A stretch of DNA of 64,000 bases from Candidatus Sabulitectum silens (GTDB lineage: Bacteria > Fermentibacterota > Fermentibacteria > Fermentibacterales > JCC-6), in contig MJAN01000003.1 in the NCBI GenBank assembly GCA_001875255.1, positions 53,186 through 117,185 of the forward strand, given 5' to 3'. The notes under the pieces were generated by a model. That model was not told the origin of the DNA. It searched no databases and was given only the letters and a program-made list of their open reading frames with translations. A program made the translations under genes and the position numbers. Shown piece by piece: positions 1 to 54,310 of the stretch (its first letter is position 1; the number at the start of each line of letters is the position of its first letter).

Positions 1-930
1 GGCTGCGGTAGTGGCTTCTCATTATGTAGAGCCTTACCACCATGGGATCCCACTCCTTGAACAGATCTCTCAGAAGGGTGAAGTTTCCAAGGCTCTTGCC
101 CATCTTCTGCCCGTTGACGGTCACCATATTGTTGTGGAACCAGTACCTTACGAAGGGCTTGCCTGTGATCGATTCCGACTGTGCGATCTCGCACTCGTGG
201 TGGGGAACGAGTTCTCCAGCCCTCCTCCGTGTATGTCAACGGTGTCTCCGAGGTATCTCATGGACATGGCGGAGCACTCAAGGTGCCAGCCGGGGTATCC
301 CCAGCTCCATGGGCTGTTCCATTTCAGGATGTGGTCATCCCCTGCCTCTTTCCAGAGGGCGAAGTCCCTTGGGTCCCTCTTGCCCTCCGCCGCCGCTACC
401 CTTGTTCCGGACATCTGGTCCCCGCCGGTCCTGCCGGAGAGCTTTCCGTAATCGGGGAAGGATGAAACGTCAAAGTACACATCACCTCCTGAAACATAGG
501 CGTTGCCATTCTCAAGCATTTTCTTCACCATTTCTATCTGCTCGGGAATGTGACCGCTTGCCCTGGGTGAGATGTCCGGCCGACGGACGTTCAGGGCGTC
601 CATGTCGCGAAAGTAGCTGGCTGTGTACTTCTCGGCGATCTCCATGGGCTCCAGCTTCTCCAGCCTGGCCTGCTTCTGAAGCTTGTCCTCACCGGCGTCG
701 GCGTTGTCGGTAAGATGCCCTACATCGGTGATGTTCTGCACGTACCGCACCCTATGGCCCAGGTGCCTCAGATACCTTACCAGGACGTCGGAGCAGACAT
801 AGCTCTTGCCATGCCCCAGATGGCTGTGGCCGTAGACCGTTGGTCCGCAGACGTAGATGCCCACGAAGGGGGGATCAAGGGGCTGAAACTCTTCCTTCTT
901 CCTTGTGATGGTATTGTAAATGGATAACAC
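1..930 (-). CDS. cysS: cysteine--tRNA ligase (partial, 3' end beyond window start; one apparent frameshift near 185-195)
   Basis: ORF 148..930 (GTG start) carries the class I aaRS HIGH region [17 protein letters not shown]. After a frame change inside a ccccacc run near 190, the protein continues [12 protein letters not shown]...[12 protein letters not shown] (KMSKS-type) to position 1. Confidence 0.9.
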
Positions 931-1920
931 TAGAGGGCTCCCTTCAGGTAGTCGATCTGCATCGAGACCCGTACCTTCTCCATGGTCTCCCCGCCGGCTT
1001 CCACCGCCCTTCGGGTTCCCTGCCTGAGTATCTCTTCGATGACCCCGGGTCTCTGGAATTCCTTCCTTCGCTCCCTGATGGGTTCCAGCAGGCTTCCAGC
1101 TTGTTCGCCAGGTTCTTCTTGCAGGCGACGCATCCCACTTCCCCGGCTCTGCAGGCGGTCTCTATCCCGGGGACCTCTTCGGCGTTGAAAGCCTGTGGTA
1201 GGCAAAGATCGTGCAGATCTCAGGGTGGCCCGGATCGGTCTTCCTGATCCTGGCGGGGTCGGTGACGGCGCTCATGACCTTCTTCCGGATCTCATCGGGG
1301 TTGTCCTTGAGGTATATGGCGTTCCCCAGGGACTTGCTCATTTTCGCGTTGCCGTCGAGACCCACAAGCCTGGAAACCTCGCTCACCATGGCCTCAGGCT
1401 CGGGGAAAACCTCGCCGTAAAGCTCGTTGAACCTCCTCGCCACGAACCTTGTAACCTCCACATGGGGCAGCTGGTCCTCCCCCACTGGAACGAGGTTCGC
1501 CCTGCAGAACAGGATGTCCGCCGCCTGGCTTACGGGATATCCCAGGAAGCCGTATGTCATGTCCGTGTAGCCGTACTGTTTAGCCTCGGTCTTTATGGTG
1601 GGATTGTGCCTCAGGCGGCTGACCGTGGTGTAAAGGCCGAAGAGCACCGTAAGTTCCGCTATCTGTGGGACCATGCTCTGAACGAAAATGCTGACCTTGT
1701 CGGGGTCGAGCCCGGCGGAAAGGTTATCCAGGGCCACTTCCCTTACATTTTCGCCCAGGAGCTCCGGTGTCTCCCAGTGGGTGGTCAGGGCCTGCACATC
1801 CGCCACTATGATGAAGGTGTCGTACTGTTCCTGAAGCCTCACCCTGTTCCTGAGTGAGCCAACATAGTGACCGAGATGGAGCGGGCCGGTTGGCCGGTCG
1901 CCGGTAAGAATTCGTTTCAT
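930..1920 (-). CDS. trpS: tryptophan--tRNA ligase (two apparent single-base frameshifts near 1170 and 1095)
   Basis: N-terminus ILTGDRPTGPLHLGHYVG and KMSKS are in ORF 1162..1920. The C-terminal GCVACKKNLANKLE and PIRERRKEFQ...VRVSMQIDY lie in two other frames (ORFs 944..1138, 930..1205). Both breaks restore by adding one base to a short homopolymer. Confidence 0.9.
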
Positions 1921-1933
1921 CTGATGGGTTTCC

Positions 1934-2942
1934 TTAAGAGTTGATCTTTACCGGTGAATCGGGGTCCCTGAAGTTCCTCAGGTCGATCTCTCCGGTGTGT
2001 TTGTCGATGATGTTCAGCACGTTCTCAACGGTTTCCCGAACAGCGGGACAGACCATGGTATACCCCTCGAGATACCTTAGCGTCCGGGGAATGTGCTGAA
2101 GATATTTCTTCCTTCCCAGGGCCCTGTACTGGTAGGCGAAGGTGCCCAGGGCCTTGAGGTTCCGCTGCAGGGCGGCGAAAACGAACTCGAACATGTTCGC
2201 CCCGTTTATCCCCAGTATGAATGCCTGGGCCATGCCCCTCCAGTGGTCGCCGCAGTCCCGGTAGCTGTCACGGAGAATGCTGGCCAGGTCGTAGCAGGGC
2301 GGACCCTGCCGGGCATCCTGCCAGTCTATGATGAAAACCGAATTGTTCTTGATCATGAGGTTGGCCGAGTGGTAATCCCGGTGGGTGAACACCGACCTCC
2401 GGTTCCCATGGCCCTTTCGCAGAGCTCCCTCATCAGCCTCTGGGTTTCCATCAGTTCGTCTACAGGAACCCGAAGCAGTCTGAAGAACAGGTGTTCGAGG
2501 GTATGCTCCAGCTCCGCCATGAAAAACTGGTGGTGAAGTACCTTCTGCCGGCGATGCTTCCGCTGGACTTTATGGGGTTGATCTCCCTCTGAAGCTTCCT
2601 CAGAAGGCCCAGGGCCTGCTGAAGCATCTTCGTGTACTCGGCGTCGTCCTTTATGTCGCAGAGTCGGGTGCTGCCCAGGTCCTCCTGTATGACGTAACCC
2701 CGGGATTCATCGCTTATGATTATCTCAGGAACGGGAAAATCCATTCCCCGGAGAAGGTTGTGTATGTCCAGCCATGGCCAGAGGGGGGTTCTCGTGCTGT
2801 CCATGGCCACATAGGTATCGCCCCGGGACTCTATGCGGTAAAACTCCCTCTTGGAGGCGTCCCCGGCCACAGGTGTGATCGAGTCGATCTCGCCATAGCT
2901 GGCTTTTATCCATCTGGCCAGGTCTTCCATTCTGTCAGTCAA
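1934..2942 (-). CDS. phosphotransferase-family kinase (APH/choline-kinase fold; AmgK-like candidate), frameshift about 2400-2460
   Basis: N-lobe ORF 2460..2942 and C-lobe ORF 1934..2392 with HRDYHSANLMI...IDWQDA (catalytic loop and DxD-type metal-binding motif of aminoglycoside-phosphotransferase-like kinases). Confidence 0.7.
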
Positions 2943-3790
2943 TCAGGGCTCCTTCGAAAAAAACCAGGGCAGAACGGTATCCTCGGCGGCTGCGCCGGGA
3001 AGGACCGATGAGCCTTCAAGAAGCACGGAATTCCTTACCACCGCGCCACCATGAATAATACAAGATGCATCGATAAGGTAAAAGCCCTCCAGTGAAGCTC
3101 CGGCGCGGACCTCGGCCAGGGGATGAACGAATGAACCCCGGGAGAGGGCATAGCGGCGATAGAGCTCCGTTTCCCCGGTGTCGTGCCACCGGGCGGTGGA
3201 GTGGTGACCATGTATGGAAAAACCCCTTTCCCGGAAGGCCTTCCTGAGTCCGGTAAAAAAGCCGGGGCCGGTACCCGGTGCCCCGGCGCATCGGGCAACC
3301 TCCGGGGAGATAACGCTCACCCCGGCATAATGGGCCCGGGTGCCGGAAACCGACAGGGTGCCGTAGTTACCAGTTTCGGGAAATTCGGCGGTGAGCACCG
3401 TCCATCGGGAGTTCAGGCTGATGTGATCCAGAAGAAGGTCGGCCAGGGGGATATCCATGACGAAATCGGTGTTGCATAGGATCCAGGTTCCCTGAAAAAC
3501 ATCCTGATTCAGCCCAAGGGTCCCTTTGCGCCCAGGGGGTTCCTCAAGGAAGGAAAGGATCTTTCCAGGCCAGTGTCTGCGAACCTCGGCCATGACCAGT
3601 TCCGGACACCTGGAGGAGTTGAATGCCATTACCTCGGGCTCCAGGCCGGCGAATTGACCCACGAGATTTCCCAGAACGGTGGTTTCTCCTATGGGAAGCA
3701 GGCACTTCGGCCTGGCAAATGAAAGGGGTTCCGCCCTCGTGCCGTAACCGGCGGTGAGGAACAGAACCCCCTGGATCGATCCGGCGGCCG
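2943..3790 (-). CDS. sugar-1-phosphate nucleotidyltransferase (RmlA/MurU-like); start codon not resolved
   Basis: GVLFLTAGYGTRAEPLSFARPKCLLPIGETTVLGNLV, a G-x-G-T-R NTP-transferase signature. The ORF-track N-terminal extension (3791-3944) overlaps the next gene and is probably not translated. Confidence 0.7.
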
Positions 3791-3792
3791 GA

Positions 3793-3993
3793 CTAGCCGT
3801 AGATCTCTTTTCTGTTGCAGCCGCACACCTTAACCCTTCGCCTCTGGGGTCTCCAGGTGTTCTTGGAACCGCTGAGGGAGGCGATATAAACGATTGCCGT
3901 TCTGTCCTCTCCGCAAACCGGGCAGGTTTCCCTGCGGACATCACGGATCTCGTGAGCGAGCTTGGCCGCGAAGGTTCTTTCTTTCTTGGGCAT
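3793..3993 (-). CDS. small zinc-ribbon protein, function unknown
   Basis: 66 aa, basic, with CPVCG ... CGC cysteine pairs. Tightly packed between the nucleotidyltransferase and the GH57-like gene. Confidence 0.4.
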   Translation of the reverse strand: MPKKERTFAAKLAHEIRDVRRETCPVCGEDRTAIVYIASLSGSKNTWRPQRRRVKVCGCNRKEIYG

Positions 3994-5117
3994 TATCTAT
4001 CCTTTCCCGCCATGGCCGGTATTTTTCCTGCAAGCTCCATGACCCTGTCAAGGAGTTCACCCCGGGGGATCCCCGCCAGGGCGGCTTCAATTATCATCAG
4101 TATGCCCCTGCGGACCTGCGAAAATGACTCGCGGCCCGAAGAAGCCCACCACAGAGGGCACGAGTATAACATTTTGTCAACCTCGTCGGCAACCCCGTCC
4201 CGGCGTTTCCCGGTGTAGTGTTCCAGAACGAAGAGGAGAAGGTCCCGGTAGGTCCTGTGGTTTGCGTTTCCCGAGTGATTCCAGAGGGGGTATGGTTCGC
4301 CGGCCTCCATATCGGGAAAGGTGGTCGACCAGCTTCCCGCCGGAAGGCGGGTTTCCTTCAGTGGGAAGCGTTTCAGTATCCTGTCCAGGGAGGATATCCG
4401 TATTCCATCAAGTATTGAGATCTCCTCCAGGAAGGGCAGAAGGAAGGAATCAATGGCTTCCGCCCTGTGATGACCGAAGGTTCTCCATCCATGGCCAGGA
4501 TAACGTAGGAATCATCCTTTCCGGTCCACTGGAAAAGGTCCTGCACCATTCTTTCCGCCATCTCACCGCCGTCATGTCCATGGAAGGATATCCTGTTCGA
4601 CCAGAAATTGCTTCTAAGGAAAACCGCCGTTCCCCCCACCGAGGGGATCCATCTTGATGGTACTTCGCCCTTGGCGTATACCCAGGGCACATCGTCGGTT
4701 ATCGCCCAGTTGTAGCCCAGTTCTCCCAGAACGCGAAGGGTTTCCTCATCCAGGGCCATCTCCGGAGGAAGACACCCCCGGGCCTGTATACCTCCCCGAT
4801 AAGCCTGCTGTTGCCTGAATCGTTAAGTGCCAGCTGGCGGGTGATCTCCTCCACGGGGATAAGGGGAAGATGGGATGATAGGCTCCGCTTGCGGTGAAGC
4901 TGCAGCAGGATAGCCGGGATACTCTTTCAAGTGTCTCAGGAGCAAGTTCCGCCAGCTGTTCCGTCAGGGAAAGGTTCATGTTCACCGTGATCTCGGAATC
5001 GGTCTCGGAAAGCATCTCGAATATAGGTTCGTAGCACTCCCGGTTGATGCGTTTCACAACATCCGGGTCCTGAGTGGGAGGCTGGTAGAAATGCAGGAGC
5101 AGTCCTATGTGTTTCAT
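3993..5117 (-). CDS. glycoside hydrolase family 57-like protein (two apparent frameshifts)
   Basis: N-terminus MKHIGLLLHFYQPPTQDP resembles the GH57 HxHQP start. The remainder is spread over ORFs 4746..5117, 4373..4759 and 3993..4310. Confidence 0.55.
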
Positions 5118-5133
5118 ACAGGTTCATTCTCCT

Positions 5134-5898
5134 TCACGGCCAGGAGGACATCCATTCCCGGAACCAGGTGGAGGCCTCCGCTGCGGAGCCCCCTGAAAGG
5201 GCTATCTCCATGAAACCCTGGCTTCCCCTGAGGAACAGGAGTTCCCTGCCCGAGGGTTCATCGGCATAGCAGCTTACGGTTTTCAGGGGAATGCTCCCTC
5301 CGGAGGTCATCAGGTCTGTCACAACAAGACCCGCCACCTGTTCAGGTGTTAGACTGAGAATGCAGTTGCCGAAGTGATCGGTGTGGAGAACCGAGGCGGC
5401 AAGGCCTTCCGCCGATGGTGCTCCCTGTGGAAAGGGCAGCAGGACCGGGTTATCATGGGGTTCCAGGAAATCGGTCCAGCCCGGGTCCACGGAGAGCCTT
5501 GCGGCGCAGGGGGCGAAGTAGTCCCTTCCGTGGAATGTGTTAGAGGCATTCCTTTCCGGGGGAGGCAGTTTCCAGAAGGAAACGGGTCCGGGGAGAAGTG
5601 AAACAAGGCCATTGTCCGGAGCCACCAGGTACCTGCCCCGCCATAGGGCTGCGAGGCCGAGCCTGTCTGTGCCCACCCCGGGGTCCACCACCACCAGGGT
5701 CACAGAGCCGCAGGGAAGGTGCGGAAGGGCTGCCCGAAGATGGAAGGCTCCATGGAGAACATTTCCCCGCCCCACCTTCGGAGTAAGGTCGATCACCGGT
5801 GTGTCATAACCGGCGAAGGAGAGGATGGCGGCCTTCATCTGGGCGGTGTAGGTATCTTCAGCGCCGAAATCCGAAAGAATGAACACCGGTGTTTTCAT
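5134..5898 (-). CDS. SAM hydroxide adenosyltransferase family protein (DUF62, fluorinase/chlorinase-like fold)
   Basis: Intact 254-aa ORF with FILSDFG...VVDPGVGT motif characteristic of DUF62. Confidence 0.8.
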   Translation of the reverse strand: MKTPVFILSDFGAEDTYTAQMKAAILSFAGYDTPVIDLTPKVGRGNVLHGAFHLRAALPHLPCGSVTLVVVDPGVGTDRLGLAALWRGRYLVAPDNGLVSLLPGPVSFWKLPPPERNASNTFHGRDYFAPCAARLSVDPGWTDFLEPHDNPVLLPFPQGAPSAEGLAASVLHTDHFGNCILSLTPEQVAGLVVTDLMTSGGSIPLKTVSCYADEPSGRELLFLRGSQGFMEIALSGGSAAEASTWFREWMSSWP

Positions 5899-5911
5899 GG
5901 CTGGCTTCCCC

Positions 5912-8168
5912 CTATCTGTGCCTTATGACCACAAGTGTGCGGTCGTCCGCCTGGGCTGCGCCCCCGGAGTGGTCGTCAACGGCCCTTAGGACCCTTTCGA
6001 CTATCTGTTCCGCGTTGAGGTCCCTGTGGTTGAGCACCGTTCCGGTCAGTCCCTGAACACCGAACTCGGAATCATTTTCGTCCATGGTCTCGGTGATGCC
6101 GTCGGTATACAGTACCAGAACATCCCCGGATCGAACCTGCCGGGTTCCGAAATCGTAATCGGAGTCCTTTATCACCCCCATCAGCAGGCCGCCCTCACTC
6201 AGCTCTTCCACATCCCCTGACCGGGAAATGAGCAGCGGGGGGTTGTGACCGGCGTTGCAGAAGGTGAGCATACCGCTCCGGGTATTGAGCACACCATAGA
6301 AAAGGCCAACCAGGCTGGATACCTCGGCCCCTACGGTGAGATCGGAATTAACCCGCTTCATTATCTGGGAAATATCGAAGAGACTCTTGACGCTGGCCCC
6401 AAGGGTTCCCTTCATGCCCGCCATGGTCAGAGCGGCGGGTATCCCCTTCCCGGCCACATCCGCCACTGCGATCCCCAGATTCCCCGTCTGGAAGGGTGAA
6501 GAAATCATAGTAATCGCCTCCCACTTCCCGGGCGGAACCGTAGTAAACCCCGATATCATAGTTCTCATATCTGGGGCTTCCTTGGGAAGAAGCCCCGCCT
6601 GGATCCTCCGGGCAGTACCCAGTTCCTCCGCCAGGGAATCCCCGCCGGAAAGCCTTCCCAGATAGAGATCGGGAAGTTTCTCACGGAGTTCCCTGGAGTT
6701 GGTTACCGAGGGATGACCGGTAACCAGGTTCACCACGGCGTTGCGAACCTCCTCGGACCTGTCGCCGAGGAGAGCGGTGAGTTTCGCGATAAGCCGGGGA
6801 TCTCAGGTATGTGTTCCAGTGAAGAGATGCAGTCAACGGCCTTCAGGCGAACGGAGCCATCGGGGTCATCCAGGAGTCTGGTAAAGAATGAGGTCTTTTC
6901 CAACACCGACGGCGCCGCGGCTCGGTTGGCTCCCCTCAGAACGCTTATCCTTACATATGGGTCGTCATCTGTTATCAGTTCCGCCGGGGAACCTCCGGAG
7001 AGGGCGCCTTCAGTGGAGAATTCGGCAATGGCCTCCCCCGCCGCGGCCCTGACGGACCTCTCTTTGTCCCGGGAGAGCTTTTCAAGGAAGCCCAGCTCCC
7101 TTTCCTCGGATATCCCAAGTCTTCTGATACCCACTGCCAGGGCCTTCCTCACAGAGGGATCGATATCGGAAGCAAGGGTATCCATACAGGCATAGGCCCC
7201 GTCGCCGAAGGATGACCTGTTCCAAAGAAGAAGCAGGGAAGCCTGGACCTTTCCTCGACGGTTCCCTTCCCCGCCAGCTGAAGGATCACCTCAAGGGCGA
7301 TCATGGCAACATCCTCCCTGCCCCCGGCCAGCAGCTGGGACAGGGACTCCCTTCCTCCGTATCCTTCGGAAGATATGGTGATCCGAAGGAGTTTCTTCTG
7401 TTCGTCGGGATCCAGTATCCGAATGTAGGGCAGCACCATAGATGCCATCTTGTTGCTCTGGGGCATTTCCTCCGCGATCAGCCCCCAGAGCACTTCCTTT
7501 TCACCGGAGTTCAGGTCTTCATAGTTCATGAGCATGCACTGGGCAACCCTTCGCAGGTCGTTCTCCGGGATGTTCGAAAAAAGCGTTTCCCTTATGGAGG
7601 GATCGAAGAACCGTATCCTGGCCCCGATGGTGTAGGCAACTATGCCCCGTCCTCCGTCTGGAAGCCTCTGCATGAGAAGCCAGAGCAGGTCCCCCGGTTC
7701 CCCTTCGAAATCCCCGGGCTGCCTGTTCATGAGTCCCCGGACCAGGGACTGCAGTTCAGCGGTGTTCTCCGAAGCAAGGGTCTCGTTGACCACCGCCATT
7801 TCCCTTTTGGAAAGCTCGGGGAAACGCCTGCCCAGAAGGAACAGAAGGAACCCCCGCACCGTGGAGGAGCCGTCGTCTATGAACCTGTCCACGAAACCGC
7901 CGGGATCACCGGCCATGCCCCACAGGTCGATACTCTGAAGAAGGTAGCCCCTGACCCTTTCATCGGGATCGGAGGCGGCGGCTTCCACCAGGTCCCTGAA
8001 GTAGTGGTCCTTCCTGAGCCAGGGATTGCCCAGGGCAACCGCCAGGGCCCTTTTTGACTCCACCGGACCGGATTCCAGTATGTGCCTGCACAGTCCCTCG
8101 GCGGCCCTGTCGAATGCCTCACGATCGGAAAGGAGCATTGCGAAAAAGTCCGCAAGATTGTCCTGCAT
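5912..8168 (-). CDS. HEAT-repeat domain fused to PP2C-type serine phosphatase (SpoIIE/RsbU family); frameshifts near 6735 and 7170
   Basis: ORFs 7149..8168 and 6730..7185 carry repeated xVRxxAxxAL HEAT/PBS-lyase-type units. ORF 5912..6736 carries the SpoIIE signatures LLPKEAPDM...GIAVADVAGKGIPAALTMA...YTDGITE. All are in series on one strand with no gaps. Confidence 0.7.
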
Positions 8169-8304
8169 GGGCTCCCGTGAAGCGGAAAAAGAAGTCTGGA
8201 CTTCTCCGAGGAAGAGAGGTGTCTGTACATGTGGGCAATGTTGTAGCCGGCCCTTCTGTGACCTGCGTCCCTGCTGTTTAGAAGGGTTTCCATCACAACC
8301 CTTA

Positions 8305-9525
8305 TCAGAGGGCTTCCCCCCCGGACAGTTCCGCCATGCCCCGGTCTACGGCGCTGAGTACAAGCGTGTCTCCGCTGCACAGATGGGCATTCCCATCGAT
8401 GGATAGCCTGCGGAAGGGAGATTTGCCCTGTGCCGCGGCGGTATTTGCGTACATTTCTTCCAGAAGGGTCTCCGAGGGGAAGGTTTCCCTCAAAAGGAAA
8501 TGAAGCCTTGACCATATCTCCGAAAGGGCGGACTTGAACACCGATTCCGGCACTATGGGTTCGAACAGGGAGAGCAGTATCAGTTCTGCCTTAGAGAAAA
8601 GGTCGAGGTCCTTGAAGGAGGCCAGGACCTTTTCGCCCTGTTCTATTCTCCACTGTCTGTTGGTCTCCGGGGATGGAAGTTCCACATGGGCGTCTCCGAA
8701 AAGGCTGAAGAGCCCGGCCATCCGGGGATCGGAGGAAGAGAGCACCACCCGTCTTCTGGAGTCGGTGGCCCTCAGGATGATGGTGAAGACCGAATGGAAA
8801 AGATGCAGGGGGTGTATTTCGGTCTGCTTCCTTATGGAATCGATATCGAAGAGAATGGCGCAATCCTCGGGGCCCCTCAGCTTTCTCTCCACGTTAGGGG
8901 CAACCACGTTTTCCTCAAGAAGCTCCATGGGAACTAGACCCTGGTCCGCCGCCTCCATGAGAAGAAGCCTTGCCATTGTGGTCTTTCCCGCCCCGAGGGA
9001 ACCGGACAGACACACGAAACCCCTGTCCCTGAAGATCGACGAGGCGCGGAGTAAACTCTCACGGTCTACGGATTCCCCGGCGACACCCTTCCATGACCGG
9101 ATGAGCTCTTCACCGGATGGATAAGAGTTCAGCCCCCGGTTGAGACCCTTCAGCCACCCCTGGACCGAGTTGAGTACCAGGGAGACCATATCCGCCCTGT
9201 CCTTGTAGGTCCAGCACCTGTTCCATTCCCTGAGCTTGGAGAAAATGGGCTCGGAATAGGACGGTTCTCCCGTTACCAGGGCACCGATGGGAACCCCCAT
9301 GCGGAACAGCGAGAAGAAACGGGACCTTGCCCCTGCGGAGGGTGAACTGCCTATCAGCAGCAGGGCGGCATCGGGAACCGTACCGGTAAAGCCCTGCACC
9401 AGAGTAACCGCCCCGGCCCATTCAGGCGGGCGCAGCTTCCCCGCCTGTGAAACGAAGACCGAATCCTCCCCATCGGGAAGAACGCCGGCATCCGCCCATA
9501 CGAGCAGCTCGAAACTGTCAGGCAT
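8305..9525 (-). CDS. P-loop NTPase of unrecognised family with non-canonical N-terminal domain
   Basis: Intact 406-aa ORF. Walker A CLSGSLGAGKTTMARLLL, putative Walker B CAILFDID. The N-terminal ~100 aa (LLVWADAGVLPDGED...AALLLIGS) shows no recognisable catalytic motif. Sits between the RsbW-like kinase and the PP2C phosphatase. Confidence 0.6.
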   Translation of the reverse strand: MPDSFELLVWADAGVLPDGEDSVFVSQAGKLRPPEWAGAVTLVQGFTGTVPDAALLLIGSSPSAGARSRFFSLFRMGVPIGALVTGEPSYSEPIFSKLREWNRCWTYKDRADMVSLVLNSVQGWLKGLNRGLNSYPSGEELIRSWKGVAGESVDRESLLRASSIFRDRGFVCLSGSLGAGKTTMARLLLMEAADQGLVPMELLEENVVAPNVERKLRGPEDCAILFDIDSIRKQTEIHPLHLFHSVFTIILRATDSRRRVVLSSSDPRMAGLFSLFGDAHVELPSPETNRQWRIEQGEKVLASFKDLDLFSKAELILLSLFEPIVPESVFKSALSEIWSRLHFLLRETFPSETLLEEMYANTAAAQGKSPFRRLSIDGNAHLCSGDTLVLSAVDRGMAELSGGEAL

Positions 9526-9535
9526 CAGAGCTCCG

Positions 9536-9952
9536 TCAGTTAAGAGGCCAGATAAGCGTGGCCCGGGTCTTTCCTTCGGGGTTCAGGCCGTAGTCGAGCC
9601 ACCTGGCAAGGTTCCTGGCGATAAGAACACCCCTGCCGCGGCAGTTGATGAGCTCCTCTCCCTCGCCGGGCCTGTGGCCCAGCTCGGCATCGGGCTGCCA
9701 GCTCCCGCAGTCGTCCACCATGAACTGAAGCCTTCCCGGGAAGGCATCGATGGAAATGGTGACCGTTTTCGCAGGGTCCCCGGCATTACCGTGTTCCATA
9801 CCATTCTTCACCACTTCCATCACCGCTATGGACAGGCTGGTGACATCCTCTTCCTCAACCCCGGCTGCAAGGCCGACTTTCTCTACGAAAACCTGAATGG
9901 TCTCAAGAAGAAGCTCATCCCCCGGAACGGTGAGTACTATTCCCTTAAGCAA
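9536..9952 (-). CDS. anti-sigma-factor-type serine kinase (HATPase_c, RsbW/SpoIIAB-like)
   Basis: 138 aa with N-box-like VMEVVKNGMEHGN and G-box GRGVLIARNL, typical of GHKL anti-sigma kinases. Confidence 0.85.
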   Translation of the reverse strand: MLKGIVLTVPGDELLLETIQVFVEKVGLAAGVEEEDVTSLSIAVMEVVKNGMEHGNAGDPAKTVTISIDAFPGRLQFMVDDCGSWQPDAELGHRPGEGEELINCRGRGVLIARNLARWLDYGLNPEGKTRATLIWPLN

Positions 9953-9954
9953 GA

Positions 9955-10296
9955 TCAGCCCTTCAGGCTTTCAAGTGCTTCCTGCTCGTCGGTGTAGGTC
10001 TCGAAGATGGTTATGAGCTTGGTGATTATGAAGAGCTCGTGGATCTTCTTGGTGGCGTTGAGAATAGCCATTTTTCCGCCAACTCTGGAGATGGATGTAT
10101 GTCCGCTGACAAGGACTCCCAGCCCGGAACTGTCCATCCAGCTCACTCCGCCGAGATCCAGGAGAACATTGCCCATGTCGTTGTTCACAGCGGTCTGGAA
10201 AACGGTCTGGAGCTCCATGAGATCCGGGCCGCTGATGACCTTGCCGTGGAGCCTTATTATCTTGATGCCTTCCTTCATTTCCTCTTTGATCTTCAC
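9955..10296 (-). CDS. STAS-domain anti-sigma-factor antagonist (RsbV/SpoIIAA-like)
   Basis: KIIRLHGKVISGPDLMELQTVFQ...LLDLGGVSWMDSSGLGVLVS (conserved phosphorylatable Ser in the DSSG context). The likely GTG start at 10296 sits 6 nt after AAGGAGG. Confidence 0.85.
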   Translation of the reverse strand: MKIKEEMKEGIKIIRLHGKVISGPDLMELQTVFQTAVNNDMGNVLLDLGGVSWMDSSGLGVLVSGHTSISRVGGKMAILNATKKIHELFIITKLITIFETYTDEQEALESLKG

Positions 10297-10302
10297 TGTA
10301 AC

Positions 10303-10309
10303 CCTCCTT
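10303..10309 (-). promoter_or_regulatory. Shine-Dalgarno (AAGGAGG) for the STAS gene and downstream partner-switching operon
   Basis: Reverse complement of 10303..10309 reads AAGGAGG, followed after 6 nt by GTG in frame with the STAS ORF. Confidence 0.5.
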
Positions 10310-10507
10310 GAAAGAGATCCGTTGAAATTCACCAACTCATGAAGAATAGATAATTATCGGGCCGATGTCATGAGCAGAGAACAAAGTCCCTCCAGTTCAC
10401 AAGGCCTCTGCCCTCCAGGAACGCCCTTATCCGCTGTCTTGCTCCGGGTTCCCTGGAGGCTCCCAGGACTGGGATTCCGTCGTGGTGGTCCCAGGTGCTG
10501 CCCGGTA

Positions 10508-11374
10508 TCACCGGAGCCCCCTCAACAGCGGTCTGGTAATCCTTTCCACCGGAGCCAGGAAAGCCGCTATGGAAAACCCCTCCCTTTTCATGTGGCCGGA
10601 GAGGCGCCTGGCGCACTGGCCGGTGCCGGCGATGTATACCCTTTTGTCGGCGAGGCAGGGCACATGCTTCAGATACATCGCCCTGGTCTTGTAAAAGGAG
10701 GTAAGGGAATACATGGGGGAACTTCGGCTGAAACGCTCCCTTCTCTCCCTCCAGGCCAGGAGCGTCTTCGGTACCCTGTAGAATCCGTATCCCGTGCTCC
10801 ACAACCTGAGCCAGAGCTCATAATCCTCGGGAAGCCCTATGTCCCGGTATCCACCGGCCTCAAGGACGCCCTTCCTGCTGTAGAACGCCGTGGGATGGGG
10901 AACCGGGCTTTCGATGAAAAGGGAGTGTTCTATTTCCTCCGGCGTCTCCGTGGCATTGATCCAGCTTTCATACCGTCTGTAACCCCGGCTTACCAGCCTA
11001 TCTGGAAAACAGCGGACCCGGGATGTTATGATGGTCCTTTCCCCCAGCTTCTCCCCGGCACGGTGCTGAAGCATTAGCCTTTCCGGATGGCAAATGTCGT
11101 CACTGTCGAACCTGGCGATCCATTTGCCCCCTGCCTGCCCAAGCCCGGTATTAAGGGCCTGGACGAAACTGCCCTTGCAGTCCAGCAGCCTGAACCGGGG
11201 ATCCGCGGAGGCGTATTCTGCGGCTATCCTTCGGGAACCGTCCCTTGACATGTTGTCCAGCATCAGCACCTCGAAATCGGTAAAGGTCTGATCGACAAGG
11301 GATTGAAGAGCCCTTTGAATAAAGTCACCGGTGTCCTTGAATGGCATTACAACGGAAACCGCAGGGGCAACCAT
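10508..11374 (-). CDS. family 2 glycosyltransferase
   Basis: VSVVMPFKDTGDFIQRALQSLVDQTFTDFEVLMLDNMSRDGS...FDSDD, a GT-A fold DxD-type signature. Confidence 0.8.
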   Translation of the reverse strand: MVAPAVSVVMPFKDTGDFIQRALQSLVDQTFTDFEVLMLDNMSRDGSRRIAAEYASADPRFRLLDCKGSFVQALNTGLGQAGGKWIARFDSDDICHPERLMLQHRAGEKLGERTIITSRVRCFPDRLVSRGYRRYESWINATETPEEIEHSLFIESPVPHPTAFYSRKGVLEAGGYRDIGLPEDYELWLRLWSTGYGFYRVPKTLLAWRERRERFSRSSPMYSLTSFYKTRAMYLKHVPCLADKRVYIAGTGQCARRLSGHMKREGFSIAAFLAPVERITRPLLRGLR

Positions 11375-12165
11375 TCAGCGCATTCCTTCATAGGCATCGG
11401 CGAGGTCTGAAACGGTGATGACCGGAGGGCTGCAGGCAAGCCCCACGCAGAGCTGGGCATAGGGCCAGCCGGTCATGGGAAGATAGGCCTCTTCCATCAG
11501 AAGGGAGTCCCCGGGAAGTGTAGGGTCCAGGATGTCCACATTGTCACCGGCCAATCGGTTAGCCTCCGCTGCAAGCTGGCCTGTGAGGGGGTCTCCCGGG
11601 GGGCCCACCACATAAACATGGATATAGATCTCCTCCTCAGGGGGGAGGGGCTCCCCAGCGGAGGCTCCGTAGAGCGCGGCAGAGAACCATTCCCCGCTCC
11701 GGGCTCCCACGGCCCTTCGGGACTCTTCACCCCCGCCGTCGAGAACAATGGTAACCGGAAGTGCGTCAGGCAGACCGTATCTGGCTGAAACGGTTTGCGC
11801 TTCGGAGGGGTTCAGCCATACCACCGTGAGACCCACCGGACGGTTCTCAAGGAAACTGCTCAGTGTGGAGAGATCGGGATCGCCTATGTCCACCGCCAGG
11901 AAAACTGCGTCTCCCTGCAGTTCCCTCTGCAGATGTTCCAGTTCGGGAAGCTCACGAACGCAGGGAGCGCACCAGGTGGCCCAGAAATTAAGAAGGACCG
12001 GCCTTCCGTCTGCTTCCGCCAGCACGCTGTCCAGGGCGGCGATCCCCAGAATAAGTTCGCCCCCTGGCCATACCCTTCGACGGTATGGTGGGAGAGAAGG
12101 ACCACAGGGACCGGAACAAGGAGAAGAAGGGTAAGGGGGATCCAGAAATGCCTTCTCATCTTCCC
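11375..12165 (-). CDS. thioredoxin-like thiol:disulfide oxidoreductase (TlpA/ResA family), frameshift near 12025
   Basis: [20 protein letters not shown] (WCxxC). The N-terminal membrane anchor [22 protein letters not shown] is found in the adjoining frame (ORF 11884..12270). Confidence 0.7.
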
Positions 12166-13031
12166 GCTCCGTGTGAGATGGCCTTCACGGGACAGGAGGA
12201 AATGCACTTTCCGCACCTTATGCACTCGGCACTTGAGGGTTCGAGGTATATGTCGATGCCCATGGGACACACCTTACCGCACTTCCCGCAGCTGACACAG
12301 GAATTCGATACCTTCATCCTCACAACGGAGACCCTGCCGAGGATACCCCATGCGGCCCCAAGCGGACACAGGGCCCTGCAGAAGGGTCTTTCCACTGTAA
12401 CCGCCCATAAAAGAACAAGAACGGCGATGGATGTTTTCCACCAGAACAGAAAGCCCAGTTCGAACTCGATAGACGAGGCAGAGACCAGTGGCCAGCCTGC
12501 CAGGGAAGTTCCCGCGGGACAGACGATCTTACAGAACCAGGGGTCGCCGGCCCCCCCGGGAACGGTCCTTAGGAATGCTGGAAGGGACAGTACAAGAATG
12601 AACAGCAGCGCGTATTTAGCCGGCCTCAGGGAATCCTGAAAGGAAAGACGGGGAGATGGGATCCTGTAAAGAATGTCCTGCAGAAGCCCGAAGGGGCAGA
12701 ACCATCCGCAGGCGAATCTGCCGGCAATGAGACCCACAATGGCGATGAATCCAACCACGGCCCCCACTATGAGGGCGTCCGGACGCATGGTGGCAAGCAT
12801 CCCCCAGAAGTTCGGTGTGGCGAGAATGGACTGAAGGCTGCCAAGGGGACAGGCGAGGACACTTGATGGACAGCTGTAGCAGTGGAGCCCCGGGATCATG
12901 GCAACCTTTGACGAGCCTGTGTATATGGTGCCGGAAACCCACCCGGAAAGGTGCAGATTCGTGGCGAGAAGAGCGCCGAACTGCACTGTCCTCCTCAGGA
13001 GGTTCTGGTTAATCAGCCTATTCCTATGCAT
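12156..13031 (-). CDS. membrane-bound 4Fe-4S polyferredoxin (CcoG/NapH/FixG-like)
   Basis: Multi-TM N-terminus with CGWFCPFG motif, then two CxxCxxCxxxCP clusters ([24 protein letters not shown]). Confidence 0.7.
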
Positions 13032-13140
13032 TCCAGACAGATATTCACGGCTTTAAAGAGAATGGCGAAGGGATCGCCAAGGATGTAGCCCGCCACCATT
13101 AAGGCGGTGGCCAGAAAAAGCAGGAGATACCTGAAAAAAC

Positions 13141-13215
13141 TGGAGGCGGCGACCAGATTCGAACTGGTGAATGGTGGATTTGCAGTCCACTGCCTTCCCA
13201 CTTGGCCACGCCGCC
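13141..13215 (-). tRNA. tRNA-Cys (anticodon GCA)
   Basis: Reverse complement GGCGGCGTGGCCAAGTGGGAAGGCAGTGGACTGCAAATCCACCATTCACCAGTTCGAATCTGGTCGCCGCCTCCA folds as a cloverleaf: 7-bp acceptor stem, GTGGA/TCCAC anticodon stem with loop CTGCAAA, TTCGAAT T-loop, encoded CCA. Confidence 0.9.
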
Positions 13216-13268
13216 TTTCAGGTTCATTGTTCACCGGAGGGCAATCATACAAAACAGAATGCAATAAA

Positions 13269-13907
13269 TCAAGAGCCGTCGGTCCAGTCAAGGCCCACCC
13301 AGAAACCCTCTTCCCAGGTCATGTCCCCCAGTGGCGTCTCAATGGTGGGAAGGGCGAACATGCTCAGCCTTCCGAGGTGTTCCTCGTCCCGGATGTTGCC
13401 GTCTATACCACCCACCGCAAGGGCAAGGTCGATCACACCGGCGGGTCCCAGTATGTCCAGCACCTGGAAGGCGTCGAAGCCGATCCCCAGATCCAGAACG
13501 GCAGTCAGGCCGTCGTCCCCTATGCCGAACTGGCCGGTGAAGAGGCCCTGGGCAACCTGGATAAGTTCCTCGGCGGGGCCCTCTTCGGCATCCATGAAAA
13601 CATCATAGTCCAGGGAAGTGAGTGTAATGGATATCTTCGGAAGCCCGGATTCCCCGGTGTTTGGATTCCTGATCCCAAGGCCGAGATCGAAGTCCATCGG
13701 GCATTCTCCCTGGAGCCAGTAGGAGGCGACCGTTGCCGCCTGGGTAACCGAAAGGCTTCCCAGTTCGGATATGTCTATTCCGCAGATGCTGAAGTCACTG
13801 GTGTTCTCCACCCTGAAGGTTGCCCTCATGAATGAAAGGGCGTCGGTGATCCCGCATCCGGTCAGAAGAAGGAAAGCCGCAGTAAGTAGAATAGCTGTTT
13901 TATTCAT
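13269..13907 (-). CDS. lipoprotein, function unknown
   Basis: Signal peptide ending in the lipobox LLTGC. The acidic mature region has no recognisable catalytic motif. Confidence 0.5.
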   Translation of the reverse strand: MNKTAILLTAAFLLLTGCGITDALSFMRATFRVENTSDFSICGIDISELGSLSVTQAATVASYWLQGECPMDFDLGLGIRNPNTGESGLPKISITLTSLDYDVFMDAEEGPAEELIQVAQGLFTGQFGIGDDGLTAVLDLGIGFDAFQVLDILGPAGVIDLALAVGGIDGNIRDEEHLGRLSMFALPTIETPLGDMTWEEGFWVGLDWTDGS

Positions 13908-14503
13908 GTCCCTCTATCCTCTCAAGTATCTGTTCAGCCGTGGCAGGATCAGCCATGGCGGGGATGTCCTCTATCGGCACCCCCAGAAGATACATGGAAA
14001 CCTCCCCCGCCATACCGAACGCCTCCGGTGTGCCGACCTCAGCCGCGGCTATCACGAAGGCGGCGGAGATATCCAGGCTCCAGGCATCGCTCCGGGGTAC
14101 ATTATCTCCATGGCTCTCTGAAAGGCATCGTTCAGCAAGCCCCGGGAAAGGAGAAGTTCGATTTCCGAGGACACATCCCCGTAGTAGTCACCTTCGCCTT
14201 CATCGATAAGTGTCAGGTCCCGGTTTTCCCCAACGAGATACCAGGCGAAAACATAGTCTGCTGTGAAGGGCATCTGAGAAATCACCTCCAGCGTGCCGTC
14301 CTCCGGGGAATACTCGCAAAAGGTTTCGCGGGATTGAAAGAAAGGGGAAAGGGAAGCCACCGGGACACCTTCACGGAGTCCAGGGCAAGGGCGATATCGA
14401 ATTCCATGGGACCGGTTTCCCTGAAAAGGAGCTCTCCCCCGTCCAGCCCATCAACAGCAATCTGCGGTTGTCCCAGGGCAAGGATAAGCAGGATCACGTG
14501 CAT
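13904..14503 (-). CDS. secreted hypothetical protein (two apparent frameshifts)
   Basis: N-terminal signal-like MHVILLILALG (ORF 14282..14503) continues through ORF 14052..14360 and a third frame to a stop near 13904. Confidence 0.4.
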
Positions 14504-14679
14504 GGTCGCCTCCTTCCGGCGGGTATTCCTCCGGAATCTATATAACCGTCGCCGGGGCCGGAGGCAACGGATGCCTTTACCGGTTGATACCGGAAATTGG
14601 CATTTTTGTTCCCATGCTTTATATGTTGTGCCCTAAAAACTTACGAGATCTATTTGTCAAATTTACGGATGGCTTTGGG

Positions 14680-53093: not shown

Positions 53094-54310
53094 CTAAAGG
53101 TTTTCTCCCCAAATAACCAGCGTGTTCTTCAACCCCTCAAGGGCGATCTCCAACCCCTCCACGGCCACCCATTCCCGTCTGGAATGGAACAGCTCACCCC
53201 CGGTGGGAAGGTTGGCGGTGGGAACCCCCATGAAACTCAGCCTCGAACCGTCGGTGCCTCCCCTGATGGAGCCCTCCACGGATTCCAGACCCAGGCGGCG
53301 AAACCCCTCAAGGGCGTAGTCAAGCAGCCTTCTGTCCTTCCGCAGTATCTCCCCGGGATTGCTGTACTGCTCCTTCATCTCCAGTTCTATACCGGCGCCG
53401 GGAAAAAGTGCCGCCAGACAGTCCCTTATGGCCTCCATCCGCCTCCGGCGCTGAACCATTCCCTCGGTGGTGAAATCCCTGAGGATGGTCTTCACCTCGG
53501 CAAAGCCGGTGGTTCCCCTGACACTCATTGGATAGTCATATCCCTGGAGGCCCCTGCTGTTCTCCGGCATTTCCTCGGAGGGCATCAAGGAGACCAGCTC
53601 CCCGGCTATTCGAACGGCGTTGATCATGCTGCCGGCGGCGCTTCCCGGGTGAACTTCCCTGCCGGTTATTCTCCAGTCCGCCGACCAGGCATTGAAGGTT
53701 TCCGAGGAAACTTCCGTGACCTCACCGCCGTCGACGGTATAGGCGAAGCTTGCTCCGAACCTGTCCACATCGAAGTTGTCCACCCCCTGCCCACTTCCTC
53801 GTCCGGTGTGAAGGCAACGGTTATTCCGGGCCTTCTGACCAGGGGATTTTCCATGAACCATCTGCAGGCCTCCATTATTATCGCCACACCGGCCTTGTCG
53901 TCGGCACCGAGAAGTGTGCTTCCGTCGGAGGTGATAATGGTGCCTCCACGGTAACGGTCCATGTCGGCGCACTCTTCGGGATCTATCACCACGCCTTCCG
54001 AAAGGGTTATGGCCCCTCCGTCCCAGTTCTCGTGAAACACAGGCCTGACATTCTCACCCGGGGCTTCCGGGGATGTGTCCACATGGGCGATGAGACCGAT
54101 GACCTCATCCCCCTCCCCGCCGGGCACCCTTCCGTAGAGAACCCCTTCGGTGGACAGGTGGACGTCCTCCATGCCCATGTCGGCCATTTCCCTCTGGAGG
54201 ATCCTCAACAGGTCGAACTGAATCCCCGAAGAGGGGCTTCCCTTTCCCGAAGGATCCGAGGCGGTGTGAACGGCTGCGTACCTTATGAACCTTTCCACGA
54301 GGGAATTCAT
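53094..54310 (-). CDS. pepT: peptidase T (tripeptide aminopeptidase, M20B); frameshift near 53770
   Basis: MNSLVERFIRYAAVHTAS...GLIAHVDTSPE...LLGADDKAGVA...FTPDEEVG (ORF 53666..54310). C-terminal ...SIRGGTDGS... (ORF 53094..53972). Confidence 0.8.

Follow-up and report, generated by a model that had tools for sequence, protein, structure and literature searches.

What does the 406-residue open reading frame (ORF) at 8305..9525 of a 64,000-nucleotide stretch of the Candidatus Sabulitectum silens genome encode, and is it a gene in its own right? The stretch, called here the window, comprises positions 53,186 to 117,185 of contig MJAN01000003.1 (GCA_001875255.1), and the ORF runs from ATG to stop on its minus strand, as do the gene segments, breaks and domains described below. 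A first-pass annotation made from the sequence had presented it as an intact frame encoding a P-loop protein with an N-terminal domain and a C-terminal helical region that matched no family it could name. According to our analysis, the protein so described is largely a sequencing-error artefact. The ORF corresponds to residues 1-403 of the real protein followed by three spurious residues and a false stop, and the complete gene (5912..9525, present in the window as five frame segments) codes for 1,205 residues comprising an N-domain, a STAND NTPase, HEAT repeats and a PP2C phosphatase. We consider it likely that the intact protein is a partner-switching phosphatase with a STAND nucleotide-switch input, encoded in a STAS/kinase/PP2C operon.

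The region downstream of the ORF contains an unassigned ORF of 339 aa, a HEAT ORF and a SpoIIE/PP2C ORF, which lie in differing frames with each one overlapping the next. One of the four relatives recovered by a word-indexed search (P0004) passes the stop at 8305 and continues with sequence that is found in two other frames of the window. Furthermore, a related contig, L001 (ENA ERZ25039527 contig_133792; 75% identical), was compared with the window by a tblastx chain and by listing the open segments. From the P-loop to the PP2C domain both sequences shift frame several times, but not at the same places, and each of them bridges the breaks of the other without a stop. The six breaks of the window (J1 to J6) are located in or beside short homopolymer runs (G7, T5, C4, G4 and two GG/CCC contexts), and six edits of one nucleotide produce a single ORF of 1,205 aa, from 9525 to 5912, with a terminal stop only. 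The stitched protein is colinear from end to end with six intact relatives, at 40-66% identity and almost without gaps, and in the short-read contigs L005, L006 and L007 the gene is one ORF of 1,203 or 1,204 aa.

A second assembly of the same organism settled four of the six breaks. Of the first 768 residues of P0021, a protein of 792 aa in the 90% cluster of the flagged ORF, 766 match the stitched protein. The contig that carries it (L089) aligns with the window over 12,380 bp without a single mismatch, and the two differ by 16 single-base indels, of which 15 are deletions in the window. The edits at J1, J2, J5 and J6 are exactly among these indels, which proves that these breaks are errors of the window only. 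J1 is a G7 run (8316..8322) that is one G short in the window; L089 has the extra G, and neither P0021 nor P0004 stops there. The stop at 8305 is therefore an assembly error, and the end of the ORF (SGG followed by EAL and the stop) arises from this one-base deletion, so that neither the intact frame nor the length of 406 aa survives. J2 is a T5 run (8186..8190) lacking one T, through which L089 and P0021 read. J5 (a C4 run one C short, 6573..6576) and J6 (a G4 run with one G too many, 6482..6485), both corrected by L089, form a compensating pair inside the PP2C ORF. This ORF (5912..6736) stays open despite the pair (6485..6576) and reads DMRTMISGFTTVPPGKWEAITMISSPFQTG where the true sequence is RYENYDIGVYYGSAREVGGDYYDFFTLPDG, hiding the GGDYYD motif; in the J5-J6 span of the called ORF 31 residues are wrong and the metal-binding motif AREVGGDYYDFF is lost.

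These data leave little room for a stand-alone 406-aa P-loop protein (small kinase, TsaE-like, KaiC-like or short STAND) acting as an accessory ATPase of the neighbouring STAS/kinase pair, a reading to which we give hardly any credence. The ORF is indeed open from ATG to stop in the window, and a gene caller produced the same 406-aa product (P0001) from the public contig, but the G7-run deletion behind its stop is not present in L089 or P0021 and every relative stays in frame to ~1,204 aa. TsaE, one of the small-kinase alternatives offered by the first-pass annotation, reached 19.3 bits where the Pfam cutoff is 26.6, with a match limited to the Walker A stretch (residues 165-191). AAA_22 and AAA_16 also stayed below their Pfam cutoffs and covered that stretch only, TIGR00150 (NCBIfam) gave 14 bits on the ORF against a cutoff of 60.1, and the KaiC-like alternative found no support. 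Matches of the ORF to FtsE, a PEP-CTERM ATPase and GarA/FHA-like proteins in the Pfam, NCBIfam, PADLOC and PDB sequence searches were discarded as noise. Among the profile searches that had been advised, nSTAND3 alone passed its cutoff on the ORF (28.6 bits against 27.2, residues 155-204 only), the other libraries giving Walker A noise. Library matches of the 406-aa ORF stay at the level of Walker A; the whole gene matches SpoIIE/PP2C.

J3 and J4 are a different case. At J3 (7231..7238) one base, probably the second G of CCCTG[G]C, is missing from the window, L089 and L090, and with this G restored the protein reads RLPWLLLWNR against the family consensus RLPWFLLWNR. At J4 (6791..6799), in the last HEAT repeats just ahead of the PP2C linker, one base of CCCCGG[G]CTT is missing from the window and L089, while frame 3 of L001 and all intact relatives read through. 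We think it quite probable that both are systematic sequencing errors rather than real frameshifts. If they were real mutations, the gene would be truly disrupted in this organism, a recent pseudogene or split gene producing a 792-aa protein (N-domain, STAND and part of the arm), with HEAT and PP2C made as separate fragments at best, which we regard as unlikely. This possibility draws on the presence of J3 in three assemblies and of J4 in two, on the lack of other frame breaks in eight neighbouring genes of L089 (~8.8 kb) and on the fact that neither site is at a long homopolymer. Nevertheless, both are short G-runs adjoining C-runs, and the assemblies that share them probably rest on one Ion Torrent read set: the metagenomes behind Ca. 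Sabulitectum silens were sequenced on the Ion Torrent PGM and assembled with Newbler, and their authors reported frameshift errors (bioRxiv 10.1101/146886). In addition, L090 has an indel error of its own, so Logan assemblies also err, and the chance that two L089 errors in 12.4 kb would both fall inside the 3.6-kb gene is ~0.08, which is not negligible. Because 108 of the 109 family-invariant columns downstream of J3 are kept, the sequence there shows no decay; the correct frames are also stop-free over ~440 residues. Two further explanations were discarded. Programmed -1 ribosomal frameshifting would call for a slippery X XXY YYZ heptamer, which neither J3 nor J4 has, and J1, J2, J5 and J6 are assembly errors. 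A methylation-motif cause, suggested by the restored sites reading CCNGG, was considered in thought only, the data being Ion Torrent and not nanopore.

With the frame restored, the C-terminal end of the protein belongs to a well-known family. The SpoIIE/PP2C (PPM) phosphatase domain (aa 1011-1205, 5912..6500) matches PF07228 with E = 1.5e-44 and 152.7 bits (cutoff 25) over positions 1-191 of the 192 of the profile. The motifs GGDYYD, DVxGKG, NAGH, YTDG and DD are invariant (GGD1006YYD, D1024VxGKG, YTD1143G, D1195D1196), so that both a full-length match and the metal-binding aspartates are present, GGDYYD only after the correction of J5 and J6. The closest solved relatives of the domain are Rv1364c, Pseudomonas aeruginosa RssB and SpoIIE. 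The linker ahead of it (aa 946-1010) is conserved at 59% mean identity, compared with 55% for the PP2C domain, 50% for the nucleotide-binding domain (NBD), 44% for the helical/winged-helix part, 41% and 35% for the arm and 33% for the N-domain. The stitched protein and each of the six relatives give Pfam matches to SpoIIE, HEAT and nSTAND3. A confident match to a characterised family, against which the first-pass annotation had staked its description, was thus found, but the function of this family is not an unrelated one, as it is tied to the STAS and kinase genes next to it.

Those two genes lie directly upstream on the same strand. The first encodes a STAS anti-sigma-factor antagonist of 113 aa (9955..10296, minus strand, GTG start after AGGAGG; Pfam STAS E = 2e-13; TIGR00377 60.7 bits, cutoff 53.45) with the phosphorylatable motif SWMDSSGLG, in which MDSSGLG aligns identically with the phospho-site motif of SpoIIAA, whose phosphorylated residue we take to be Ser58. 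The second encodes an RsbW/SpoIIAB-like serine kinase or anti-sigma factor of 138 aa (9536..9952, minus strand; Pfam HATPase_c_2 E = 1.4e-16) in which the N, G1 and G2 boxes (E..N..HGN, DDxG and RGRG) are invariant. The kinase stop lies 10 nt ahead of the phosphatase start, the gaps within the three-gene unit being 2 and 10 nt, and both starts have Shine-Dalgarno-like sequences. Three adjacent co-oriented genes with a phosphorylatable STAS serine and intact kinase boxes make up a partner-switching module. The order STAS, HATPase_c_2, phosphatase is kept in L002, L005, L006, L007 and L089 with gaps of 2-16 nt, and the adjacency of kinase and phosphatase also in L004. This synteny is conserved across Fermentibacterota. 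The earlier advice to examine the STAS/HATPase neighbours proved to be the key to function.

At the other end of the protein, the P-loop motifs reported before are genuine. Walker A (GSLGAGKTT, aa 175-183, 8977..9003) and the hhhhD-type Walker B (AILFDID, aa 223-229, 8839..8859) contain G175, G178, G180, K181, T182, T183, D227 and D229, all invariant in 7 sequences, and agree with the STAND pattern (Walker A GxxxxGK[ST]; Walker B hhhhD with a further acidic residue). The P-loop NTPase core (aa 155-290, 8656..9063; helix alpha0 and five strands, from Pfam nSTAND3 and AlphaFold2) includes a conserved segment, RATDSRRR-hhhh-SSS, that spans beta4. It is followed by a helical lid and a winged-helix-like part (aa 291-403, 8317..8655) with invariant LPxP and PFRR motifs, and it is these parts that had been taken for a C-terminal helical region, which in the whole protein continues into ~540 aa of HEAT repeats and the PP2C domain. 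In the recommended AlphaFold2 model (mean predicted local distance difference test score, pLDDT, 80) the core occupies residues 155-290, helices follow at 291-346, and a winged-helix-like part that includes a hairpin extends over 352-401; on this predicted model the core, helical, winged-helix and repeat regions of a STAND architecture would all be present. STAND structures align over 190-255 residues, SAMD9 being the top-ranked Foldseek neighbour and nSTAND3/Avs5 structures being among the top ones. The six relatives match nSTAND3 with 28.2-38.7 bits, and the family profile in turn matches canonical Mrr_cat+nSTAND3 proteins (E = 5e-5 to 4e-4 in 1.84e9 sequences), a reciprocal but weak relation. 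Taken together, the motifs and the model suggest that the NTPase is a divergent module of the nSTAND3 type of AAA+/STAND proteins, STAND being indeed among the classes that had been offered for it.

The separate N-terminal domain (aa 1-130, 9136..9525) is as hard to assign as had been claimed, since Pfam, NCBIfam and PADLOC give it no name. Comparison with solved structures places it among three-layer alpha/beta flavodoxin-like folds, with no superfamily assignable; the domain is specific to this family, and its invariant residues are P34, W36, A37, D52, S63, R67, P79 and W105. No phospho-acceptor Asp was found at the C-terminal end of beta3, where the residues are G/Y/N/N/S/D, and a receiver identity, for which this Asp, an acidic pair after beta1 and a Lys after beta5 would be expected, was rejected. 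An identity as a TIR/nucleoside 2-deoxyribosyltransferase-like domain, for which a conserved catalytic Glu and a family profile match would be expected, was rejected as well.

Between the NTPase and the linker lies the repeat arm (aa 404-945, 6695..8316), made of ~540 aa of HEAT-type repeats, with Pfam HEAT and HEAT_2 matches at ~aa 771-945, D-x-x-P-x-VR motifs that recur from aa 520 onward and PDB profile matches to alphaRep and the PP2A-A subunit. The arm shows zero indels in 367 columns. Judged from the alignments, this pattern of identity with few indels is that of a vertically inherited orthologue and not of a diversifying defence sensor. An anti-phage or conflict role would make the protein an Avs-like STAND whose HEAT arm recognises a phage protein and whose PP2C effector rewires the cell via the STAS/kinase pair. 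Such a role would fit the facts that nSTAND3 is the NTPase of Avs5 defence and of Mrr_cat+nSTAND3 proteins and that an NTPase followed by repeats, in a tripartite layout, is typical of such sensors. It seems to us quite improbable in view of the fixed length of the protein (1,203-1,206 aa), of an arm that at 35-41% identity is virtually free of indels, of PADLOC giving Walker A noise only (E >= 0.015) and of a fixed site in conserved housekeeping surroundings, with no mobile-element genes nearby, in genomes that are just 40-66% identical. Membership of the Avs-type systems was likewise rejected on defence models, variable location and diversifying repeats, none of which was found as expected for them.

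An exhaustive profile search of 1.84 billion representatives returned 16 proteins, compared with the four of the word-indexed search, which were all fragments. Six of the 16 are intact (1,203, 1,203, 1,204, 1,204, 1,206 and 1,206 aa), the relatives carry the names Ca. Sabulitectum, Ca. Fermentibacteria and Ca. Aegiribacteria, and the intact ones are publicly named "SpoIIE family protein phosphatase"; MCK5786513.1, NLP06239.1 and MCK5116536.1 are examples of intact orthologues. When a collection that represents each species by one genome was examined, only Fermentibacterota gave full-length matches, and other phyla matched through the PP2C domain alone. Long matches in other phyla were considered as STAND fusions and discarded, as they are tandem PP2C genes with no Walker A. 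Such paired large PP2C genes (600-900 aa each, on one strand) were seen in Ignavibacteria, Bacteroidota, Zixibacteria, Caldithrix and Latescibacterota (L013, L018, L019, L023, L026, L030, L033, L037, L038, L044, L045, L054 and L058), and these paired RsbU-like phosphatases are apparently a different and widespread arrangement. Candidate division CSSED10-310 has a protein, P0018, that is remotely homologous to the N-domain, NTPase and HEAT parts (hhalign 98.7%, columns 46-641). It is a 738-aa partial sequence cut by a contig end (L088 5001..7216, GCA_042576305.1) that stands alone among 5.8 billion proteins, with a 277-aa HATPase_c_2 gene ~3.5 kb upstream. The protein P0003 diverges from all relatives in its last 26 residues (QGVHFRTGREACRASPQRPMQQRGPT) near the end of its contig (L004 1166..1250, JGI 3300006668), probably through a frameshift or a contig-end artefact.

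How could such a protein work? STAND proteins are ADP/ATP switches that oligomerise upon binding of a ligand to the repeat arm, and they are classically arranged as effector, NTPase and sensor. Oligomerisation is also how nSTAND3 NTPases such as Avs5 act, as filaments show (PDB 9jap and 9nc9; bioRxiv 10.1101/2025.07.08.663546), and PP2C phosphatases of the present family are activated by linker-mediated dimerisation via diverse N-terminal sensor domains (PMC12143880). By analogy with these systems, we infer how nucleotide switching, oligomerisation, the direction of regulation and the output may be arranged here. At rest, the NTPase would hold ADP with the HEAT arm packed against it, and the PP2C domains would be apart and inactive. 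Binding of a cue to the HEAT arm or to the N-domain would lead to exchange of the nucleotide for ATP, the NTPase modules would oligomerise, and the C-terminal linkers and PP2C domains would meet as an active dimer, as in RsbU, SpoIIE and RssB. The active phosphatase would then dephosphorylate STAS~P, free STAS would capture the RsbW-like kinase, the partner sequestered by this kinase would be freed, and ATP hydrolysis would reset the switch. We tentatively propose that the PP2C domain is under the direct control of an NLR-like (STAND) ATP switch, inherited vertically and with a housekeeping role, which in this way drives the STAS/RsbW partner switch, and we give this proposal slightly less than an even chance.

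Several observations, in addition to the shared breaks J3 and J4 and the clean L089 neighbours discussed above, speak against this proposal. The nSTAND3 match (PF20720) is marginal, falling to 26.7 bits, below the cutoff, on the full protein, and it is partial, covering positions 4-52 of the 155 of the profile in the window protein and at best 3-115 in the relatives. Walker B is D-x-D without an adjacent catalytic Glu, so hydrolysis by the NTPase may be slow or absent. The PP2C effector is C-terminal to the repeats, unlike the classical STAND order. Lastly, no sigma-factor Pfam domain or other output gene was found among the called neighbours in L005, L006, L007 and L089. The second point, together with the weak nSTAND3 match, would also suit an NTPase that is a degenerate scaffold, either permanently loaded with nucleotide or unable to bind it, in which case regulation would come only from the HEAT arm or from the RsbW-like kinase binding to the N-terminal region, like RsbT-RsbU; activation of RsbU by its HATPase-family partner RsbT is established (PMC12143880). 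We hold this scaffold to be rather improbable, for the Walker A GxxGxGKTT, the Walker B aspartates, RATDSRRR and SSS are invariant across sequences only 40% identical and the NBD is more conserved than any region but the linker and the PP2C domain, all of which argues for a working nucleotide site.

The surroundings of the operon are conserved as well. In the window, L089, L005, L006 and L007 the gene order is Fer4, redoxin, GT2, STAS, HATPase_c_2, phosphatase, SAM_HAT and GH57, continued by a 66-aa ORF, a nucleotidyltransferase, APH and tRNA synthetases, and L002 and L004 show the upstream part of this order. The operon thus always stands between Fer4/redoxin/GT2 (window ~10368..13031) and SAM_HAT (SAM hydroxide adenosyltransferase-like)/GH57/nucleotidyltransferase/APH (~2400..5900), a neighbourhood that hints at a link to alpha-glucan or sugar-nucleotide metabolism, perhaps to the target of the switch. 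In L001 (9700..9830) the redoxin stop is followed directly by ...MKATDRCFGRGFVCLSGSMGAGKTT, and the contig is without ~2.4 kb that would hold GT2, STAS, the kinase and residues 1-160 of the phosphatase. The gap may reflect a genuine deletion variant that lacks the N-domain and the partners, or else a misassembly, L001 itself being full of frame breaks.

The errors found in the phosphatase gene are not confined to it, as the window has ~1 indel per 0.8-1 kb overall. Relative to L089, indels were located within 2158..14522 at ~14326, 12064, 10521, 8322, 8190, 6576, 6485 and 5174, with further sites at ~4868, 4770, 4482, 3539 (2 nt), 3524, 2526 and 2395; they break the redoxin, GT2, SAM_HAT, GH57, nucleotidyltransferase and APH genes. 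In a comparison with L005, a relative whose sequence is clean, the frame shifts twice in the tRNA-synt_1b gene (Trp/Tyr-tRNA synthetase family, 948..1923) and once in the Cys-tRNA synthetase gene (2..927), and breaks in such essential genes support assembly error over gene decay. The indels of the window are probably homopolymer errors of the Ion Torrent/Newbler data. ORF lengths, "intact frames" and apparent small genes in this window are accordingly not reliable at face value, and even an ORF that stays open, such as that of the PP2C domain, conceals compensating frameshifts that erase a catalytic motif.

Partner-switching cascades govern stress responses, sporulation, biofilm formation and virulence, and how signals enter them via PP2C phosphatases is an active question. 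If our proposal is true, an ATP-dependent oligomerisation switch would join the list of PP2C inputs as a previously undescribed signal route, NLR/STAND sensors and partner switching, usually treated apart, would become linked, and the "sensor-oligomerise-activate" logic of STAND proteins would serve routine physiology rather than defence or cell death.

Compared with known systems, the first two domains recall the NtrC family (NtrC1, NtrC4, NtrX, LuxO and VpsR), in which a flavodoxin-like N-domain is also followed by an AAA+-class NTPase and whose members gave high Foldseek matches with the two-domain model; unlike them, the present protein lacks a beta3 phospho-acceptor Asp and a sigma-54 interaction motif, and Pfam matches it to neither Response_reg nor Sigma54_activat. 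MalT, AfsR/LAL, PknK-type kinase-STAND fusions and PH0952 have DNA-binding or kinase outputs, usually N-terminal, whereas here a C-terminal Ser/Thr phosphatase leads into a partner switch, and there is no sequence relation beyond the P-loop. With nSTAND3 proteins (PF20720; Avs5/AVAST type 5 SIR2-STAND and Mrr_cat-nSTAND3) it shares the P-loop core with the preceding helix, the helical and winged-helix parts and the alpha-helical repeats, but its N-domain is not a nuclease or SIR2 effector, its enzyme is the C-terminal PP2C domain, and it differs further in vertical inheritance, a fixed chromosomal context, a conserved repeat arm and a Pfam match that is marginal and partial. The closest likeness is to the phosphatases of the RsbU/RsbP/SpoIIE/RssB type, among them Rv1364c of Mycobacterium tuberculosis, with which it shares a C-terminal SpoIIE-family PP2C domain with all metal-binding motifs, and with that type also a conserved helical linker ahead of this domain and a gene that adjoins those of a phosphorylatable STAS protein and an RsbW-like kinase. 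It departs from them in having no sigma factor gene in its neighbourhood and, above all, in its input: the sensor domains given for the PP2C family are PAS, receiver, GAF, HAMP and RsbU-N (PMC12143880), whereas here the input is a STAND NTPase and HEAT module of ~1,000 residues. No description of a STAND+PP2C or SpoIIE+STAND+HEAT architecture, or of partner switching joined to AAA+/NLR proteins, was found in the searchable literature, whose coverage is incomplete, so that this is absence of evidence only. The SpoIIE/PP2C family and the canonical partner-switching gene set were thus already known, and so named in public records, while the STAND NTPase and HEAT arm as the input of the phosphatase, in uncultured Fermentibacterota only, are new as far as this literature shows.

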